From a virus (lineage: Duplodnaviria; Caudoviricetes), in the IMG/VR virus record IMGVR_UViG_3300036982_000387, positions 1-38,702 of that record: 38,702 bases of DNA; one strand, written 5' to 3'. Positions within the stretch are counted from its first letter, which is position 1, and every line of letters starts with the position of its first letter. Both the position numbers and the translations under genes were made by a program. The notes under the pieces were generated by a model. The model did not search any database. It was not told the DNA's origin and saw only the letters and a list, made by a program, of their open reading frames with translations. Positions 3,371 through 36,828 of the stretch are shown here, in pieces.

Positions 3371-4042
3371 ATGCTTGAAGAAATATTAAATAAACTGGAT
3401 TTTATCGGATCGCTTGATCTTGATGAAAAAGTGGTAGCAATTAACGCGATAAGAAAGCGCTTGCATGAGTTAAGCCCTTTTAATTCTTGCCCTGTAGATT
3501 TTGTTGAGTGGGTTAAGAATGAAAACGTACACGCTAACGACTACAACCCAAACAGCGTAGCCCCCCCAGAAATGAAGCTTTTGGAGCGATCTATTGAGGC
3601 AGACGGATACACGCAGCCAATTGTTACATGGCCAAACAATGGCTACGAAGTGGTTGACGGGTTCCACCGCCACAGAGTTGGCAAAGAATCGGAAATTGTC
3701 CAAAAAATGGTTATGGGTTATTTGCCTGTAGTTTCTTTGGCTGTTGATCGCCACGAAAGAAATGACCGTATGGCCGCCACAATTCGCCATAACCGCGCAA
3801 GAGGCAAACATAGTGTATCTGCTATGTCTGAGATTGTAGTCGAGCTGAAAAGGCGTTTTTGGAGCGATGAGCGAATTGCAAAAGAATTAGGAATGGAGCC
3901 TGATGAGGTTTTGCGGTTGCAGCAAGTTAAAGGCTTGGCGTTCGCGTTTAAAGATTCTGATTTTAGTGAGTCATGGGAGGCTGAATCTTTCGCTGATTTA
4001 GGTAAGGATGAATTTGAAGGGGAGCTGATTAATGAGAATTAA
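3371..4042 (+). CDS. ibrB: ParB/Srx-domain protein (IbrB/YbdM-like)
   Basis: ANDYNPNSVAPPEMKLLERSIEADGYTQPIV...VVDGFHR...RMAATIRHNRARGKH; RBS GGAG. Confidence 0.85.
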   Translation: MLEEILNKLDFIGSLDLDEKVVAINAIRKRLHELSPFNSCPVDFVEWVKNENVHANDYNPNSVAPPEMKLLERSIEADGYTQPIVTWPNNGYEVVDGFHRHRVGKESEIVQKMVMGYLPVVSLAVDRHERNDRMAATIRHNRARGKHSVSAMSEIVVELKRRFWSDERIAKELGMEPDEVLRLQQVKGLAFAFKDSDFSESWEAESFADLGKDEFEGELINEN

Positions 4043-4418
4043 AAGAATTTACCACCACTTTTCAAAATGCGAAGAATTCAAAAGCGTTATGTGGCAGTCA
4101 TCACTTGGATTCGATAAGAAAGAAAAGGCTAAGCAGTGCTCTGAGTTTATGTCAGATACAGATTTATTTAGCGCTGCAATGATGCTGGTTATTGCTGAGT
4201 GGCCGTTGTCATGCGAGGCAAACTTTACAAATACAGGGATTAATCAGGTTGCTTGGCTTGGTCAAGCTGCTGCTGCAATAGCTATTGAATGCCCCGAAGA
4301 CATAACAAAAGAGGCTTGGGGTTTGCTGGGTTCAGATAAGCAAGAGCTGGCAAACAATGCGGCAAAAATGCACATTAAAAAATGGAAGCTTGCGCATTTG
4401 GAGAGTTTTTATGCCTAA
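4032..4418 (+). CDS. hypothetical protein within the ibr module
   Basis: 128-aa ORF overlapping both neighbours; EWPLSCEANFT...AWLGQAA motif. Confidence 0.75.
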   Translation: MRIKRIYHHFSKCEEFKSVMWQSSLGFDKKEKAKQCSEFMSDTDLFSAAMMLVIAEWPLSCEANFTNTGINQVAWLGQAAAAIAIECPEDITKEAWGLLGSDKQELANNAAKMHIKKWKLAHLESFYA

Positions 4419-5619
4419 GAAATACATTGGTGTTGACGTTTTAACGTCCGCAAAAGAACGAATAGCCTACACATTTGATAATTTTGAGCGCGTATGTGTG
4501 TCGTTTTCAGGCGGTAAAGATTCGGCGGTAATGCTTCACTTGGTTATGGATGAGGCTATCAAGCGTGGTGTTACCGTGGGGGTGCTGTTTATCGACTGGG
4601 AATGCCAGATGAAAATGACAATCTCGTTTTGTGAACAGATGTTTGAAAAGTACGCGGGAAACATTGATCCGTTTTGGGTATCGCTTCCAATGAAAACATG
4701 GAATGCAACAAGCCAGTTCGAGCCGGAGTGGACAGCTTGGGATAAAGACAAAAAAGATTTATGGGTTCGCCAGCCAAGCAAGCATTCAATAACTGATTAT
4801 GATTTTTTTGACTTCTGGCACTATGGAATGCCATTTGAAGAGTTTGTGCCATGCTTTGCAAAGTGGTACGCACAAGGAAAATCATGCGCTCAATTTGTTG
4901 GAATCCGTGCGGATGAGTCATTAAACCGATTTAGAACAATTTCCCGCGATAAGCCTATGTTTGACAGTAAGCCATGGACGACTAACGTTATCGAAAATTC
5001 ATGGAACGTTTACCCAATTTACGACTGGAAGACAAAAGACATTTGGGTTTACTTGGGTAAGTTTGAAAAAGAATATAACAAGCTTTATGACTTCATGATG
5101 CAGGCCGGAATGAAGCTATCACAAATGCGAATCTGTGAGCCGTTCGGTGATGAGGCTAGAAAGGGTCTATGGCTCTATCAAGTGTGTGAGCCAGAGATGT
5201 GGGGCAAGCTAGCTTTGCGTGTCGCTGGCGCTAATACTGGTGCCTTATACGCAACCGAGAAAGGTGCTGTCATGGGCAATCACTCTATAGCCTTGCCAGC
5301 CAATCACACTTACGAATCTTTTAGTATGCACCTGCTAGAAACAATGCCAAGCCGAACAGCGGAGCACTACAAAAACAAATTGTTTGTGTACTTGAATTGG
5401 TGGGCTAAGCGTGGCTACGAAAACGGAATACCGGACAAGGTTGAGGTTAAGCTAGAAAACAATGGCAAGGTTCCATCGTGGAGAAAAGTTTGTAAAACAA
5501 TTCTTAAAAATGACTTCTGGTGCAAAGGTCTTGGGTTTAGCCCGACAAAAAGCTCAGCTTATGAAAAGTACATGAAGCAAAAGGCAGAAAAGCGCAAAGA
5601 GACAGGCGTAATGGCTTAA
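4411..5619 (+). CDS. ibrA: PAPS-reductase-family protein (IbrA/YbdN-like, DUF3440)
   Basis: PP-loop VSFSGGKDS, VGIRADESLNR, YPIYDWKTKDIW, MRICEPFG and PSWRKVCKTILKNDFWCKGLGF motifs. Confidence 0.85.
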   Translation: MPKKYIGVDVLTSAKERIAYTFDNFERVCVSFSGGKDSAVMLHLVMDEAIKRGVTVGVLFIDWECQMKMTISFCEQMFEKYAGNIDPFWVSLPMKTWNATSQFEPEWTAWDKDKKDLWVRQPSKHSITDYDFFDFWHYGMPFEEFVPCFAKWYAQGKSCAQFVGIRADESLNRFRTISRDKPMFDSKPWTTNVIENSWNVYPIYDWKTKDIWVYLGKFEKEYNKLYDFMMQAGMKLSQMRICEPFGDEARKGLWLYQVCEPEMWGKLALRVAGANTGALYATEKGAVMGNHSIALPANHTYESFSMHLLETMPSRTAEHYKNKLFVYLNWWAKRGYENGIPDKVEVKLENNGKVPSWRKVCKTILKNDFWCKGLGFSPTKSSAYEKYMKQKAEKRKETGVMA

Positions 5620-33291: not shown

Positions 33292-33462
33292 ATGAATCGC
33301 AAATGGGTAGGGCTAAACGAGTACACAGCTAAAAAAATGCAAGAAAAAATAGACGAGGCAAACGAGCAGCGCAAAGAGCTAGGCCGAAAGCCTATACGGG
33401 CTTGCGATTTTATGGCCGAGGCCGTTGACCGCGTAACAGTGGCGCAGTTAGTTAGGGTTTAA
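33292..33462 (+). CDS. small putative regulator (56 aa, RHH/Cro-position)
   Basis: Hand-translated MNRKWVGLNEYTAKKMQEKIDEANEQRKELGRKPIRACDFMAEAVDRVTVAQLVRV; RBS GAGGG; stop TAA lies within the first attC core. Confidence 0.65.
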   Translation: MNRKWVGLNEYTAKKMQEKIDEANEQRKELGRKPIRACDFMAEAVDRVTVAQLVRV

Positions 33463-33536
33463 CGCAAAGGTAAACGGCGCACGGAACGTGCGTCCAGTGG
33501 AGCGAAGCGGAGCGATGTTTGACCGCCTTGTTATGA
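33457..33536 (-). repeat. attC site (80 bp)
   Basis: Minus strand: TCATAAC-AAGGC-GGTCAAAC...GTTTACC-TTTGC-GTTAAAC. Confidence 0.9.
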
Positions 33537-33557
33537 CCAACATTTTGCAGGTGATTT

Positions 33558-33812
33558 ATGGACGGCTTTAAGATTTTAGAAATTGCACACAGAACCGCGT
33601 GGAAATATAAAAAGAGTAGTGACCCGCACCACTCGGACACATACACTTTTAACGAGCACACACTTATTGATTTTGTGCAGAAAGTTCAGACGCATTTAAT
33701 ATTAGATGAGAGAAATCGTTGCGCAGAACTAGCAAAAGATTTAGATAATGACGAAAACACATATGACTACAGGGCGGCAGCTAGATATATTGCTGAGCGC
33801 ATAGAGTCATAA
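33558..33812 (+). CDS. cassette hypothetical protein (84 aa)
   Basis: RBS AGGTGA; DERNRCAELA...AARYIAERI phage motif; TAA within the core site. Confidence 0.75.
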   Translation: MDGFKILEIAHRTAWKYKKSSDPHHSDTYTFNEHTLIDFVQKVQTHLILDERNRCAELAKDLDNDENTYDYRAAARYIAERIES

Positions 33813-33893
33813 CGCAGAGCGCAGCCGCGCGCATTTAATCAGTGATCATTTAGCCGATTTATGACGCGTCCGAGTTGCAGCGTATTGTTATTT
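33807..33893 (-). repeat. attC site (87 bp)
   Basis: Minus strand: AAATAAC-AATAC-GCTGCAAC...GCTGCGC-TCTGC-GTTATGA; slightly degenerate. Confidence 0.8.
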
Positions 33894-33937
33894 TTTGCTA
33901 CAGAGTGAATTATTTTCTATTTTGTAGTTTAAAAAGC

Positions 33938-33966
33938 TTTACATTCAATGTAATGTGTTTTAATAT
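33938..33966 (+). promoter_or_regulatory. cassette-internal promoter with palindromic operator
   Basis: TTTACA, 17 bp, TAATAT; TTACATT-C-AATGTAA (33939-33953) overlaps the -35. Confidence 0.65.
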
Positions 33967-34018
33967 ACATTCACTGACTAAGGAAATGGCTCCGAGGCAG
34001 AAACCAAGGTGAATAAAA

Positions 34019-34294
34019 ATGGCAAGATCAACAGTTAAAACAGTTCAAATTAAAGGCGTGGATTACATAGCTTCAATTGCTTCAAACGATGATAATAATT
34101 TGCGTAGCGCGTACTTGACACCGAAATTTGTTGTGGATGCTAACTTAGACGCTGAACATCCTGACTTTTGGAATCACATAAATTCAGAGATTGATGTCTG
34201 CCGTTTGGTTGACGCAACAGATGATGAAATTTTGGCGATGATTGATGCAAAAATTGAATTGATGCAATCAGACAGTCTTGAGAGCTTTTTCTAA
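34019..34294 (+). CDS. cassette hypothetical acidic protein (91 aa)
   Basis: RBS AGGTGA; TAATG-coupled to the next gene. Confidence 0.75.
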   Translation: MARSTVKTVQIKGVDYIASIASNDDNNLRSAYLTPKFVVDANLDAEHPDFWNHINSEIDVCRLVDATDDEILAMIDAKIELMQSDSLESFF

Positions 34295-34482
34295 TGAAAA
34301 CCGAGGCGCAGGCGAAAGCCTGCACTCTTTTAGAGTTTATTGATTTACATTTTGAAGGCAACCAAAGCGCGTTTGGCCGCGCTCAAGACGTTTCCCGCCA
34401 GCAAGTGCGCGAATGGGTTGATAAAGATTTTATTGTAGTAAATGGGAGGCTATACAGCCCACGGCGCGAACTGAAAACATAA
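34294..34482 (+). CDS. cassette small HTH (Cro-like) protein
   Basis: FEGNQSAFGRAQDVSRQQVREWV helix-turn-helix; TAA within the core site. Confidence 0.75.
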   Translation: MKTEAQAKACTLLEFIDLHFEGNQSAFGRAQDVSRQQVREWVDKDFIVVNGRLYSPRRELKT

Positions 34483-34560
34483 CGCCAAGTTCAGCCCGTG
34501 GCTGGGAGTAAGTAAATAATGGCCGATTCTAGCACCATCGGCTGAAACTTTTTGTTATGT
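34477..34560 (-). repeat. attC site (84 bp)
   Basis: Minus strand: ACATAAC-AAAAA-GTTTCAGC...GCTGAAC-TTGGC-GTTATGT. Confidence 0.9.
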
Positions 34561-34586
34561 GCAGGCTTGCTTGCGAGGATTTATAA

Positions 34587-34766
34587 ATGGAAGAAACAAA
34601 ATTAGAAAGTGCGGCATTCTTGATGGTTGATGCTTACCACAAAAATACAAAAATGATTGACGCATTGAACTATGTTGCAAGCAAAGAAACATGCAAAGGC
34701 GTTCCGTATAATGTTTTACAGGGTATGTGGATTGTTTTGGACGCTTACCATGAATCAAAAAAATAA
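34587..34766 (+). CDS. cassette hypothetical protein (59 aa)
   Basis: Hand-translated MEETKLESAAFLMVDAYHK...; RBS GAGG. Confidence 0.7.
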   Translation: MEETKLESAAFLMVDAYHKNTKMIDALNYVASKETCKGVPYNVLQGMWIVLDAYHESKK

Positions 34767-34783
34767 GCCGTTTTGACTGATAC

Positions 34784-34869
34784 ACATAACGCCAATATAA
34801 CTGGTGCGCTTTTCACAAGTGATTAGTGCACCTAACTTAAACCGCATCCAGTTCATATTCTTGTTATGT
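34784..34869 (-). repeat. attC site (86 bp)
   Basis: Minus strand: ACATAAC-AAGAA-TATGAACT-GGATGCG...CGCACC-AGTTATA-TTGGC-GTTATGT; two extrahelical bases. Confidence 0.9.
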
Positions 34870-34893
34870 GCTGGAACTTGAGATGATTTAGCT

Positions 34894-35097
34894 ATGGAAG
34901 AATTAATAACAGAAGTAAGAGCGTGGCTTAGGGCGCACGGCGATTACGATATAAAAATAAGTTTGCATGGTTTATACGGTGTTATTGAGGTTCGCGGTTT
35001 TAAATTGAATAGAGAGATTGCTTTTAGTAAGGGGCAGGATTTTAACAAGCACATAAAAATAGTGCTCGGAATTTTGATAGCCGATAGCACCACATAA
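34894..35097 (+). CDS. cassette hypothetical protein (67 aa)
   Basis: Fills the cassette; TAA within the core site. Confidence 0.7.
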   Translation: MEELITEVRAWLRAHGDYDIKISLHGLYGVIEVRGFKLNREIAFSKGQDFNKHIKIVLGILIADSTT

Positions 35098-35176
35098 CGC
35101 CAAGTTCAGCCCGTGGCGGGGAGTAAGAATTTAATTAGCCGTTGGTGCGACCATCGGCTGCAACTTTTTGTTATGT
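35092..35176 (-). repeat. attC site (85 bp)
   Basis: Minus strand: ACATAAC-AAAAA-GTTGCAGC...GCTGAAC-TTGGC-GTTATGT; close paralogue of 34477-34560. Confidence 0.9.
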
Positions 35177-35202
35177 GCAAGTTTTCTTGCGAGGATATTT
35201 AA

Positions 35203-35424
35203 ATGGGTAAAGTTATTCCGTTCAAAGGGAAAACAATGGTGGATATACCGCCTAGCCAAATTTTAGAAGCTGCGCCAAAAGACCTTTTATATGTTTTGGT
35301 GATTGGCATTGATAAAGATGGCGAGCGGTATTATGCCAGTTCTGAATCAGACTTAGGCCGCGCATTTTACGAGATGGAAAAGATGAAGTTGTTTGCGCTA
35401 GATGGCGGTGACGGCAACACATAA
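35203..35424 (+). CDS. cassette hypothetical protein (73 aa)
   Basis: RBS GAGG; KVIPF...ILEAA...VLVIGIDKDGERYYASS phage-type motif; TAA within the core site. Confidence 0.75.
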   Translation: MGKVIPFKGKTMVDIPPSQILEAAPKDLLYVLVIGIDKDGERYYASSESDLGRAFYEMEKMKLFALDGGDGNT

Positions 35425-35502
35425 CGCCGAGATTTGCGGCGGCTGGGAGTAATTAAACTGGGCGGCAATGTAGATTCCGTCCGCAAGATTGACTTGTTAC
35501 AT
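35419..35502 (-). repeat. attC site (84 bp)
   Basis: Minus strand: ATGTAAC-AAGTC-AATCTTGC-GGACGG...CCGCC-GCAAATC-TCGGC-GTTATGT. Confidence 0.9.
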
Positions 35503-35524
35503 TTACAAAACATGAGGATTTAAG

Positions 35525-35665
35525 ATGATTGGATTTACCCAGATTTATATTGACGATGATGGCTACCCAAGCGAAAGAGAAACGCAGTGGGCTGCAAGTG
35601 CGTTTGTGTTTCTGTTTTGGACTATTTACGTTGGCAAGGTGCGCCATGTGGGTGACATAAAATGA
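35525..35665 (+). CDS. cassette hypothetical protein (46 aa)
   Basis: Hand-translated MIGFTQIYIDDDGYPSERETQW...; RBS GAGG; ATGA overlap with the next gene. Confidence 0.6.
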   Translation: MIGFTQIYIDDDGYPSERETQWAASAFVFLFWTIYVGKVRHVGDIK

Positions 35666-35853
35666 CCGAGAAAGTTGTTTATTTAGCCTACTCACACAAA
35701 GAAGCCGCAACAGAATCAACTACTTTTCTTGCTTGTGCAAACTGCAAAAACAAGACGTTCTCAATAGTGTATGAGAACGAAAGCGAAATACCGCGAATGA
35801 AATGCGGTGCGTGTGGCTGGAATGGTGGGCGGATAGGTTTTCTTGATGAGTGA
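35662..35853 (+). CDS. cassette Zn-ribbon protein (63 aa)
   Basis: CANC...CGAC; TGA abuts the core site. Confidence 0.7.
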   Translation: MTEKVVYLAYSHKEAATESTTFLACANCKNKTFSIVYENESEIPRMKCGACGWNGGRIGFLDE

Positions 35854-35937
35854 ATGTAACGCCCGAATAACGGGCGCGCATACGGTGCCAGTAAAAACGC
35901 ATATTTCTACCGCGTCCCGTTCATTTGCTGGTTACAT
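35854..35937 (-). repeat. attC site (84 bp)
   Basis: Minus strand: ATGTAAC-CAGCA-AATGAACG-GGACGCG...CGCGCC-CGTTATT-CGGGC-GTTACAT. Confidence 0.9.
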
Positions 35938-35964
35938 TGTTTTTGCACTTTGTGAGGTTTTACG

Positions 35965-36660
35965 ATGATAAAAATGTTGAATATGGATTGCATGGAGTAC
36001 ATGCGAACCGTGCCAGACAAGTATTTTGATTTGGCTGTTGTTGATCCGCAGTATGGTCTTGGTGAGCATGGCGGAAAAAATAGAAGCAAAGCCGTTAGGC
36101 AAAAAAATGGCGGATCTCTAATGTGTGTTGATGGCGGATATTCAAAAAAGAATTGGGATGATGAGCCGCCTAAGCCAGAATATTTTGAAGAGCTATTACG
36201 AGTTTCTAAAAACCAAATAATTTGGGGTGCTAATTATATGCCTGCCAAATTAACGGGAGGCGCAATTGTTTGGGATAAGATTAATGATGGCTCAGATCAA
36301 AGCGGCGCAGAGATTGCTTTCTGCAGTTTAAACAATAGGGTTGATGTTGTTAGATACATGTGGCGCGGGATGATGCAGGGCGAAGGAATTGGGAGCGTTA
36401 AGCAGCAAGGCAACAAAGCGCTTAACGAGAAAAGAATTCACCCAACGCAAAAGCCGGTAAAGTTATACCAGTGGCTCTTGCAAAACTACGCTAAGCCAGA
36501 GTTTAAGATTTTAGACACACACCTTGGTAGCGGTTCTAGCGCGATTGCAGCGCATTACTTTGGTGTTGCTGAGTTTGTGGGTACTGAGCTAGATGAGGAT
36601 TACTACAAAGCTTGCTGTGAACGGTTTGAGAATGCCACGGCACAAGAAGCACTTTTTTAA
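35965..36660 (+). CDS. cassette DNA methyltransferase (N6-adenine/N4-cytosine, beta class)
   Basis: MDCMEYM...FDLAVVDPQYG, IHPTQKPVKLY, ILDTHLGSGS, GTELDEDY. Confidence 0.9.
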   Translation: MIKMLNMDCMEYMRTVPDKYFDLAVVDPQYGLGEHGGKNRSKAVRQKNGGSLMCVDGGYSKKNWDDEPPKPEYFEELLRVSKNQIIWGANYMPAKLTGGAIVWDKINDGSDQSGAEIAFCSLNNRVDVVRYMWRGMMQGEGIGSVKQQGNKALNEKRIHPTQKPVKLYQWLLQNYAKPEFKILDTHLGSGSSAIAAHYFGVAEFVGTELDEDYYKACCERFENATAQEALF

Positions 36661-36663
36661 ACA

Positions 36664-36700
36664 ATGTAACAGTTTATTCAAAGGGTCGACCCGTAAAACT
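36664..36700 (-). other. attI-like recombination site
   Basis: Minus strand AGTTTTACGGGTCGACCCTTTGAATAAACTG|TTACAT: core matches the end of the first cassette, with no attC hairpin partner. Confidence 0.6.
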
Positions 36701-36828
36701 CCGACATTTAGACGACATGATGCATTGATTTTATTGAAGTTTTTTAGCGTGTTTGGAGTTTTTCTTGGCAGGCCGCAATTCCACAAAAACCGCACTGAAA
36801 AAGTGCAAATGATTTGATATGGTGCAAT

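Follow-up and report, generated by a model that had tools for sequence, protein, structure and literature searches.

The window analysed here, a viral contig of 38,702 nucleotides (IMG/VR record IMGVR_UViG_3300036982_000387), holds what we take, with a probability of about 0.7, to be an integrase-less phage array in which each cassette consists of a hairpin followed by phage genes on its bottom strand, the series ends at a copy of a bacterial attI site, and the cassettes are likely excised and inserted by the integron integrase (IntI) of the host. The units begin with their hairpin and are exchanged at AA|C, the terminal site is identical to bacterial attI, and no IntI was found in the 22 phage contigs searched.

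Layout and polarity of the array

Seven attC-type hairpins span positions 33457-35937, their bottom strand being the plus strand, which also carries the cassette ORFs (Table 1). The first crossover core takes its left half from the TAA stop (33460) of the backbone ORF upstream, ninB follows the terminal site, and recombination genes lie on both sides of the array. The original prediction, made from the sequence alone, had the stops at or near the crossover correct at every position it named (33810, 34480, 35095, 35422, 35851 and 36658), as well as the leaders of about 30 nt in six of seven cassettes (25-31 nt when measured from GTT, against 129 nt in cassette 2); absent from it were the stop of cassette 3, which falls 23 nt short of the crossover, and the position of the backbone stop within the first core. 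The leader of cassette 2 is conserved in two other phage contigs (G133 and G113), and this cassette may have a promoter of its own, judging by a weak consensus match. A promoter scan returned 5 sites versus 9.9 expected, i.e. below chance. The 63-aa ORF of cassette 6 has weak zinc-ribbon matches, below cut-off, and an Rfam search gave no match.

Table 1. Features of the cassette array and its borders (window positions; hairpin strand is that of the attC top strand)
Feature	Positions	Strand	Product or length	Remarks
Backbone ORF	33292-33462	+	56 aa	cro-like by position only; no Pfam or PHROG match
attC-type site 1	33457-33536	-		bottom strand plus; heads cassette 1 (33463-33812)
Cassette 1 ORF	33558-33812	+	84 aa	partial homolog follows hairpin in contig G015
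attC-type site 2	33807-33893	-		probably hybrid; heads cassette 2 (33813-34482)
Possible internal promoter	33938-33966	+		in leader of cassette 2; weak, 9/12 consensus match
Cassette 2 ORF a	34019-34294	+	91 aa	
Cassette 2 ORF b	34294-34482	+	62 aa	phrog_10103, HTH-like phage protein
attC-type site 3	34477-34560	-		heads cassette 3 (34483-34789)
Cassette 3 ORF	34587-34766	+	59 aa	
attC-type site 4	34784-34869	-		two bulged bases; folding z -4.9; heads cassette 4 (34790-35097)
Cassette 4 ORF	34894-35097	+	67 aa	
attC-type site 5	35092-35176	-		heads cassette 5 (35098-35424)
Cassette 5 ORF	35203-35424	+	73 aa	phrog_11040; near-identical gene within L109 array
attC-type site 6	35419-35502	-		heads cassette 6 (35425-35859)
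Cassette 6 ORFs	35525-35853	+	46 aa and 63 aa	35525-35665 and 35662-35853
attC-type site 7	35854-35937	-		heads cassette 7 (35860-36669)
Cassette 7 ORF	35965-36660	+	231 aa	N6/N4 DNA methyltransferase
attI-type terminal site	36664-36810	-		crossover AA|C at 36669/36670; 16-nt simple site 36667-36682
Terminal site, second box	about 36688-36702			followed by conserved, non-folding tail

All seven hairpins show the features of attC sites (R'' and R' cores with AAC/GTT, L boxes, 5-nt spacers and an extra base in L''), imperfectly so in site 2. The 8-nt L box lies in the right arm of the plus strand in 7/7. The original claim that the extra base of L'' marks minus as the top strand holds for six sites, in which it is the fourth base in the minus reading, and is ambiguous (third or fourth) at site 33807. 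This base is the classical G in only two of the seven sites, and a second bulged T occupies its canonical place in three (34784, 35419 and 35854). Six of the seven pass the hairpin score, for which 200 Markov-1 simulated sequences gave chance means of 0.02-0.095 sites; site 33807 scores below the other six and seems to combine two hairpin families. Neither folding energy nor G/C skew was kept as a strand marker, as neither fixes the strand: the plus strand is the more stable in 5/7 sites and most minimum-energy folds differ from the full recombinogenic hairpin. Plus is the bottom strand at all seven sites (for the strand rule, see Nivina et al. 2016, PMC5027507, in the portion available).

All nine ORFs (9/9 on plus) are thus inverted relative to attC, as originally predicted, and the standard arrangement, in which attC follows a gene carried by the top strand, does not occur in the window. 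Three tests independent of the extra-base rule back this polarity: the units shared between arrays (see below), bacterial arrays oriented by their intI, and third-position bias. In phage arrays the bottom-strand ORF is the longer one in 60/67 units, and each of the seven exceptions (one being cassette 6 of the window) has either a plausible bottom-strand ORF with a GTG or TTG start or several ORFs; where bacterial integrons with attC sites of this family are oriented by their intI, the top-strand ORF is longer in 50/60. The core TAA serves as stop codon in 34/67 phage units versus 3/60 host units. Substitutions show a third-position bias on the plus strand, which bears out the premise that the plus ORFs are the real genes, and none of five minus-strand ORFs matches Pfam, their tblastn matches falling over plus-strand genes or the terminal site.

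At 36667 the array terminates in a site that agrees in 16/16 nt with the attI of six integrons from one gammaproteobacterial group. Trained on 20 phage sites, a matrix finds a site at 13 of 28 IntI loci, at a distance of 248-382 nt upstream of intI; six of these sites are identical to that of the window, and the motif is missing from the remaining 15 loci. The terminal motif alone retrieved six new viral contigs, all with hairpins directly upstream (6/6). No convincing empty attI was found; three of 27 matrix hits have no hairpins, and those are also without the second box. The long terminal motif has no match in genome contigs and, among metagenome contigs, matches only G001. No minus-strand consensus promoter (Pc) was seen in the terminal site, and the cassette genes face the other way. 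IHF and LexA sites were considered for the terminal element and rejected, as neither consensus fitted. With attI located at the downstream end of the array, new cassettes would enter promoter-distal, in agreement with the original prediction; a reversed expression gradient along the array is a further prediction.

Exchange between phages and the probable enzyme

Whole-hairpin identity between cargo-sharing units being uninformative, breakpoints were mapped instead. In all five cassettes shared between arrays, the end lies within 0-6 nt of the AA|C that follows; the whole upstream hairpin is included in three and the downstream hairpin in none, one unit beginning inside a hairpin and another at its cargo. 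Core and inverse core match by at least 4 nt beyond GTT in 51/67 units in cassette register versus 12/67 within integrated sites. In an independent metagenome (run X2), a contig joins 34479 to 36667 and so lacks 2187 nt, which is exactly what cassettes 3-7 add up to, although the short side of the joint has just 27 nt, at a likeness (85%) that also admits sequence from other organisms; a second X2 contig runs past 36670 into a new hairpin. In L100 and L198, homologs of cassette 2 directly adjoin the terminal site, and array content varies among related phages at the same genome position.

These breakpoints bear on the strongest alternative, an array first built by IntI whose present exchange is mainly homologous recombination between repeated hairpins, carried out by phage exonuclease and Nin proteins. 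The hybrid look of site 2, the two shared units that begin inside a hairpin or at the cargo, and the flanking recombination genes speak for it; we nevertheless consider it unlikely, as every shared cassette ends at AA|C, only 4 letters are common to the cassette and the attI joined in the short form from X2, and core complementarity is kept in cassette register.

With no IntI in the 22 phage contigs, the enzyme is likely IntI supplied in trans by the host, on sequence grounds. PF00589 occurs in one of these contigs (TIGR02249 score 16.5 bits, cut-off 265) and in neither of the two that are at least 90% complete (one of them 100% complete); the window, from a contig 86% complete, has none, and PF00239 is absent from the five contigs checked (5/5). 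An IntI query of viral contigs with a single protein, which reaches close relatives only, gave 28 loci, none with an inverted array beside IntI; at least two attC sites occur at only two of them, both canonical Vibrio-type arrays. The counts of PF00589 and PF00239 argue against a phage-encoded or other non-IntI recombinase (e.g. Xer-like) as the mover of the cassettes, a reading we find somewhat less probable than homologous recombination. The incompleteness of the window contig leaves room for it, and tyrosine recombinases do lie near the arrays of contig G017 and of a prophage in genome G114, but both score as ordinary phage integrases, and the terminal site equals the attI found beside bona fide intI genes.

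Hosts and known integrons

The host of the window phage likely belongs to the same gammaproteobacterial family, a link made through a cassette gene and site shared with a MAG-binned phage contig. IntI scores above cut-off in 23/31 genomes around G022, and G114, which encodes IntI, carries a P2-like prophage with such an array, adjoining housekeeping genes. The ESM Atlas resolved taxa to phylum level only. Among 277 genomes of the family, window cassettes matched six contigs, five of them phage contigs and one (G108:C72) mixed, in which a phage-type inverted cassette, with a near-identical copy of site 4 (34784), sits in register beside a canonical one; this short bacterial contig (1.19 kb) lacks intI and may itself come from a phage. 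The search for window genes as inverted cassettes in bacterial integrons, suggested at the outset, thus gave one mixed contig, while no cargo gene is common to the 60 host units and the phage contigs. Nor is there a clear canonical host cassette among the 67 phage units, though one enzyme should sometimes mix the two pools.

By our own attC scan the window fits the definition of a CALIN, a cluster of attC sites with no integron integrase nearby (in a contig 86% complete); attI is present at the array end and the intI of a complete integron is not beside it. The array could be a piece of chromosomal integron captured once and now inert, as suggested by its host-type attI and related attC sequences and by such captures in Vibrio phages (described by Qi et al. 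2023, PMC9892861, in the text available). This seems very improbable to us: the genes carried are of phage type and face the other way from those of host arrays, related phages differ in content at the same position, hairpins have a median length of 77 nt versus 123 nt in hosts, and window cassettes matched only the six contigs above. That the strand call is wrong and the cassettes canonical is hardly credible. In its favour, the sites are nearly palindromic, and recombination of top strands is possible, at reduced rates (Nivina et al. 2016, PMC5027507, same portion); against it, the upstream hairpin travels with shared cassettes, the terminal attI is downstream, similarity to host attC falls on the same strand as intI (40/42 nt of the right arm of site 1 match a host attC), and the scanner used reports Vibrio integrons as canonical.

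Like sedentary chromosomal integrons, the phage array has attC sites with R and L boxes, spacers of 5 nt and bases that bulge from the 3' arm of the bottom strand, as well as the AA|C crossover, core/inverse-core complementarity and attI at one end. It differs from them in having no intI beside attI and genes on the bottom strand, after the hairpin; its cargo consists of phage genes, and its transcription would start opposite attI. Single inverted cassettes are known in bacterial arrays, for example toxin-antitoxin cassettes with their own promoter, and individual bottom-strand-gene cassettes were seen in the bacterial arrays examined here. Cassettes are reportedly also inserted at attG sites, so outside integrons (Loot et al. 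in 2024). Unlike these cases, the phage arrays are inverted throughout, with insertion at one conserved attI.

Also close are the phage CALINs of Qi et al. (2023, PMC9892861), which share integrase-less attC clusters, methyltransferase cargo and sites usable by IntI1; the available text makes no mention of ORFs inverted relative to attC, of an attI identical to that of the host or of phages exchanging cassettes. The bottom strands of the phage H101 sites were recombined better by IntI1 (same text), and by our own scan these are the coding strand of the annotated genes, so that two assayed sites are of the inverted type. By the same scan TJE1 is canonical, and arrays were recovered in none of four of the seven phages fetched (P12002L, jenny 12G5, 3/49 and H188). 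Our literature search found no description of the inverted-array arrangement in phages, though the two sites of Qi et al. belong to it. The label "reverse integron", under which the array was first described, already names integrons with intI co-directional with canonical cassettes (PMC7691350 and PMC4909258, as far as their available text goes). The Treponema integrons so named, whose stops lie at R'' and whose cassettes are canonical, share nothing else with the phage array, which has no intI and non-canonical cassettes.

A model and its implications

In the mechanism we propose, IntI from the host chromosome would, during infection or lysogeny, recombine the folded plus strand at AAC. The attI lies within the early rightward operon, in the orientation opposite to the bacterial arrangement, so that only back-to-front cassettes would be read from the phage promoter, with new ones being added at the far end. 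Ordinary host cassettes would insert antisense and then drop out. Phage cassettes that entered a host array would likewise run antisense to Pc, and this antisense landing either way would keep the two pools largely apart. A blastn search of the array against cultured phages matched only the methyltransferase. For two of the cargo genes, cultured phages have homologs that no hairpin surrounds, which suggests that ordinary genes were turned into cassettes. To the wider scenario we would give even odds: phages of one bacterial family would hold a stolen host attI against their early operons and trade, through host IntI, back-to-front cassettes of phage genes only, newly built from those genes, each side's cassettes being silent in the other.

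Integrons are viewed as bacterial tools and, lately, as stores of anti-phage genes. If the model is true, phages reshuffle early genes, a methyltransferase included, by means of a host enzyme, and the integron also feeds its host's parasites. Together, the attI, the IntI clade that goes with it and paired attC sites from host and phage can be tested at the bench, and comparing free and cassette forms of the cargo genes makes the question of cassette origin testable. Cassettes being built from phage genes would then offer a handle on where integron cassettes come from.

Polarity of the cassette units

The seven hairpins of the window have AAC/GTT cores, 5-nt spacers and, on the plus strand, a 7-nt left and an 8-nt right L box; six of them pass our own hairpin score (0.02-0.095 expected), and the positions in the original prediction were all correct on re-checking. 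The plus strand is taken as the bottom strand of these sites because of the attC strand rule in the accessible text of Nivina et al. 2016 (PMC5027507) and a second strand reference, the bottom-strand sequence of aadA7 given in Qi et al. 2023 (PMC9892861). In control runs the scanner called Vibrio chromosomal arrays canonical (gene on the attC top strand), the bottom strand lying on the intI strand in 6/6 sites of control locus L020 and loci L026 and L031 agreeing with that call. For these particular sites we infer both the preferred strand and the expression of the genes.

A polarity survey independent of the extra-base rule covered 16 phage contigs (87 sites, 67 units). The longer ORF lies on the bottom strand in 60/67 units, and in 34/67 the bottom-strand ORF terminates at the TAA supplied by the core that follows. 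Five of 13 between-array alignments of at least 150 nt are shared cassettes, and each of these has its end within 0-6 nt of the following AA|C; three run from the core through the upstream hairpin, one starts inside the hairpin and one holds cargo only, so the hairpin travels with the gene behind it. Another is a shared backbone gene that stops at +1 of the first site, and the remaining seven cover terminal sites, a methyltransferase stretch and flanking genes. Bottom-strand ORFs and shared upstream hairpins thus uphold the claim that cassette genes are inverted relative to attC. In some phage cassettes the gene begins within the loop of the hairpin, and the right arm of attC therefore encodes its N-terminus.

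Substitutions at codon positions 1/2/3 of the bottom-strand frame number 63/52/208 over eight homologous pairs, three of which are among relatives only while four reuse one window gene; one antisense frame mirrors the third-position bias, as expected. Three of the nine plus-strand ORFs have PHROG matches, and for two small ones homologous genes occur in cultured phages of Pseudomonas and enterobacteria, with no hairpins found at 3/3 of these loci. In cassette 2 the leader, which contains a possible promoter, and an HTH-like gene are conserved among phages, with a variable gene between them.

The window, an entire virus record (38.7 kb, estimated 86% complete), is a lambdoid-type tailed phage by its PHROG matches to replication, terminase, head, tail and lysis genes. 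Beyond the lysis genes come a leftward recombination block and a rightward one that includes NinB and NinG (PHROG), the array lying between a 56-aa backbone ORF and ninB.

Features of the window and of compared loci (L, individual loci; G, genomes or phage contigs)
Feature	Position
ParB-like and PAPS-reductase-like genes, probable DNA-modification module	window 3371-5619
56-aa backbone ORF	window 33292-33462
First core, in many arrays also the TAA stop codon of the preceding backbone gene	window 33460; L095:1119; L098 flipped 5674; L197:7624; L200:7711
Cassette 2, leader and genes	window 33894-34482; L095, L100, L197, L198
Cassette gene start within hairpin loop	L008 flipped 13482; L009 flipped 11327; L003 flipped 4675; L197:10066
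Identical 16 nt, terminal site and host attI	window 36667-36682; L110:243-258
Terminal element, with direct and inverted copies of a box that also occurs between host attI and intI	window 36688-36770
Two arrays in one phage, each with its own terminal site	G001 (35236, 42869); G002 (opposite strands)
Excisionase-like ORF and ordinary phage integrase directly after terminal site	G017 (L095:4500-5642)
attI-like 17-mer (score 16.3), lacking both hairpins and a second box	L007:3101 minus
Recurrent ORF-less host cassettes, ~430-590 nt	L177, L178, L183, L110:1-242
Assayed attC sites of phage H101	NC_029094 (L014), 75500-78000

The terminal site and the probable integrase

Similarity to other phages starts at the last core of the array, where a terminal site that does not fold (z +0.8) closes most arrays. 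Searching for its motif without attC information gave 12 viral matches, six on new contigs, and hairpins lie directly upstream in 6/6 of these. Of 27 matrix matches in 655 kb, 24 follow a hairpin (20 of these being training sites) and none precedes one. The isolated 17-mer of L007 is either a chance match or an empty remnant.

In the GTDB collection the terminal-site motif had a single match, on a phage contig binned in a gammaproteobacterial MAG (G022); the array of this contig contains the cassette-5 gene in near-identical form. This MAG encodes IntI (382 bits, cut-off 265), IntI also exceeds the cut-off in 23/31 genomes around it, and the intI is preceded by the identical stretch listed in the table. 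The phage-trained matrix finds a site 248-382 nt upstream of intI in 13/28 IntI loci, six of the 13 being identical to the window over 16 nt. Phage terminal site and host attI also have in common a second box ~20 nt from the crossover, which may be an accessory IntI site.

No tyrosine recombinase was found in the 86% complete window. PF00589 occurs in 1/22 phage contigs, in a protein that is not IntI, and PF00239 in 0/5. We infer both the enzyme and the host of the window phage.

Host integrons and cassette movement

On the intI strand, the attC sites of these host integrons are similar to the phage hairpins (40/42 nt agree between window site 1 and one of them), with a median hairpin length of 123 nt versus 77 nt in phages. 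Host integron genes are on the top strand in 50/60 units. The other ten comprise seven ORF-less cassettes of one family, a top-strand gene with a TTG start, one unclear unit and an inverted two-gene cassette resembling a toxin-antitoxin pair. A conserved ORF-less family recurs in host arrays and is also found in first position in G022.

Window cassettes matched 6/277 genomes of the family of G022. Phage contigs account for five of the matches, with inverted arrays on four and a free methyltransferase on the other; contig G114:C152 is a P2-like prophage that adjoins housekeeping genes including folD, and its genome encodes IntI. The sixth match (G108:C72; L192, 1190 nt) begins with a short hairpin almost identical to site 4 of the window, a ribosome-binding leader similar to those of the window, and a gene on the bottom strand that has three homologs at 73-76% identity. 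These are followed by a long attC of host type whose nucleotidyltransferase gene is on the top strand, and by another host-type attC, all in register. It is a mixed array, with a phage-type inverted cassette beside a canonical host-type one. The suggested search of bacterial integrons for inverted cassettes thus yielded one in a host-type array, on a contig whose length does not allow it to be placed. When the 277 genomes were searched with hairpins three more times, the matches were confined to this contig and phage contigs.

A contig of X2, a metagenome run from another study, joins 34479 to 36667 with four shared letters, skipping 2187 nt, exactly cassettes 3-7 (307+308+327+435+810), and a second continues past 36670 into a fresh hairpin. 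Since each depends on 26-27 nt at the end of a contig, matching at 85% likeness, these junctions are supporting rather than decisive. In two other phages homologs of cassette 2 lie directly against the terminal site, and a cassette of 1165 nt takes the terminal position in phage G001 and an internal one in G003.

Relation to described integrons

According to the accessible text of Qi et al. 2023 (PMC9892861), phage attC sites recombine with attI1, bottom strands better. In H101 the annotated genes are encoded on the bottom strand of both tested sites; sites of inverted polarity have therefore been assayed, and one CALIN already in print belongs to the inverted type, with no mention of the inversion found in that text. 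The array of phage TJE1 is canonical, though its methyltransferase is related to that of cassette 7. The window array differs from the 'reverse integron', a term used in the accessible parts of PMC7691350 and PMC4909258 for a co-directional intI. CALIN mobilisation in trans is an established idea in the available text of PMC11389934. In the mostly open-access literature searched, no paper was found on inverted phage arrays or a phage-borne host attI.

The window thus appears, with a probability of about 0.7, to carry a genuine array of inverted, exchangeable cassettes that is joined to an attI of host type and most likely served by the host IntI. It is a novel form of integron system, assembled from known parts.
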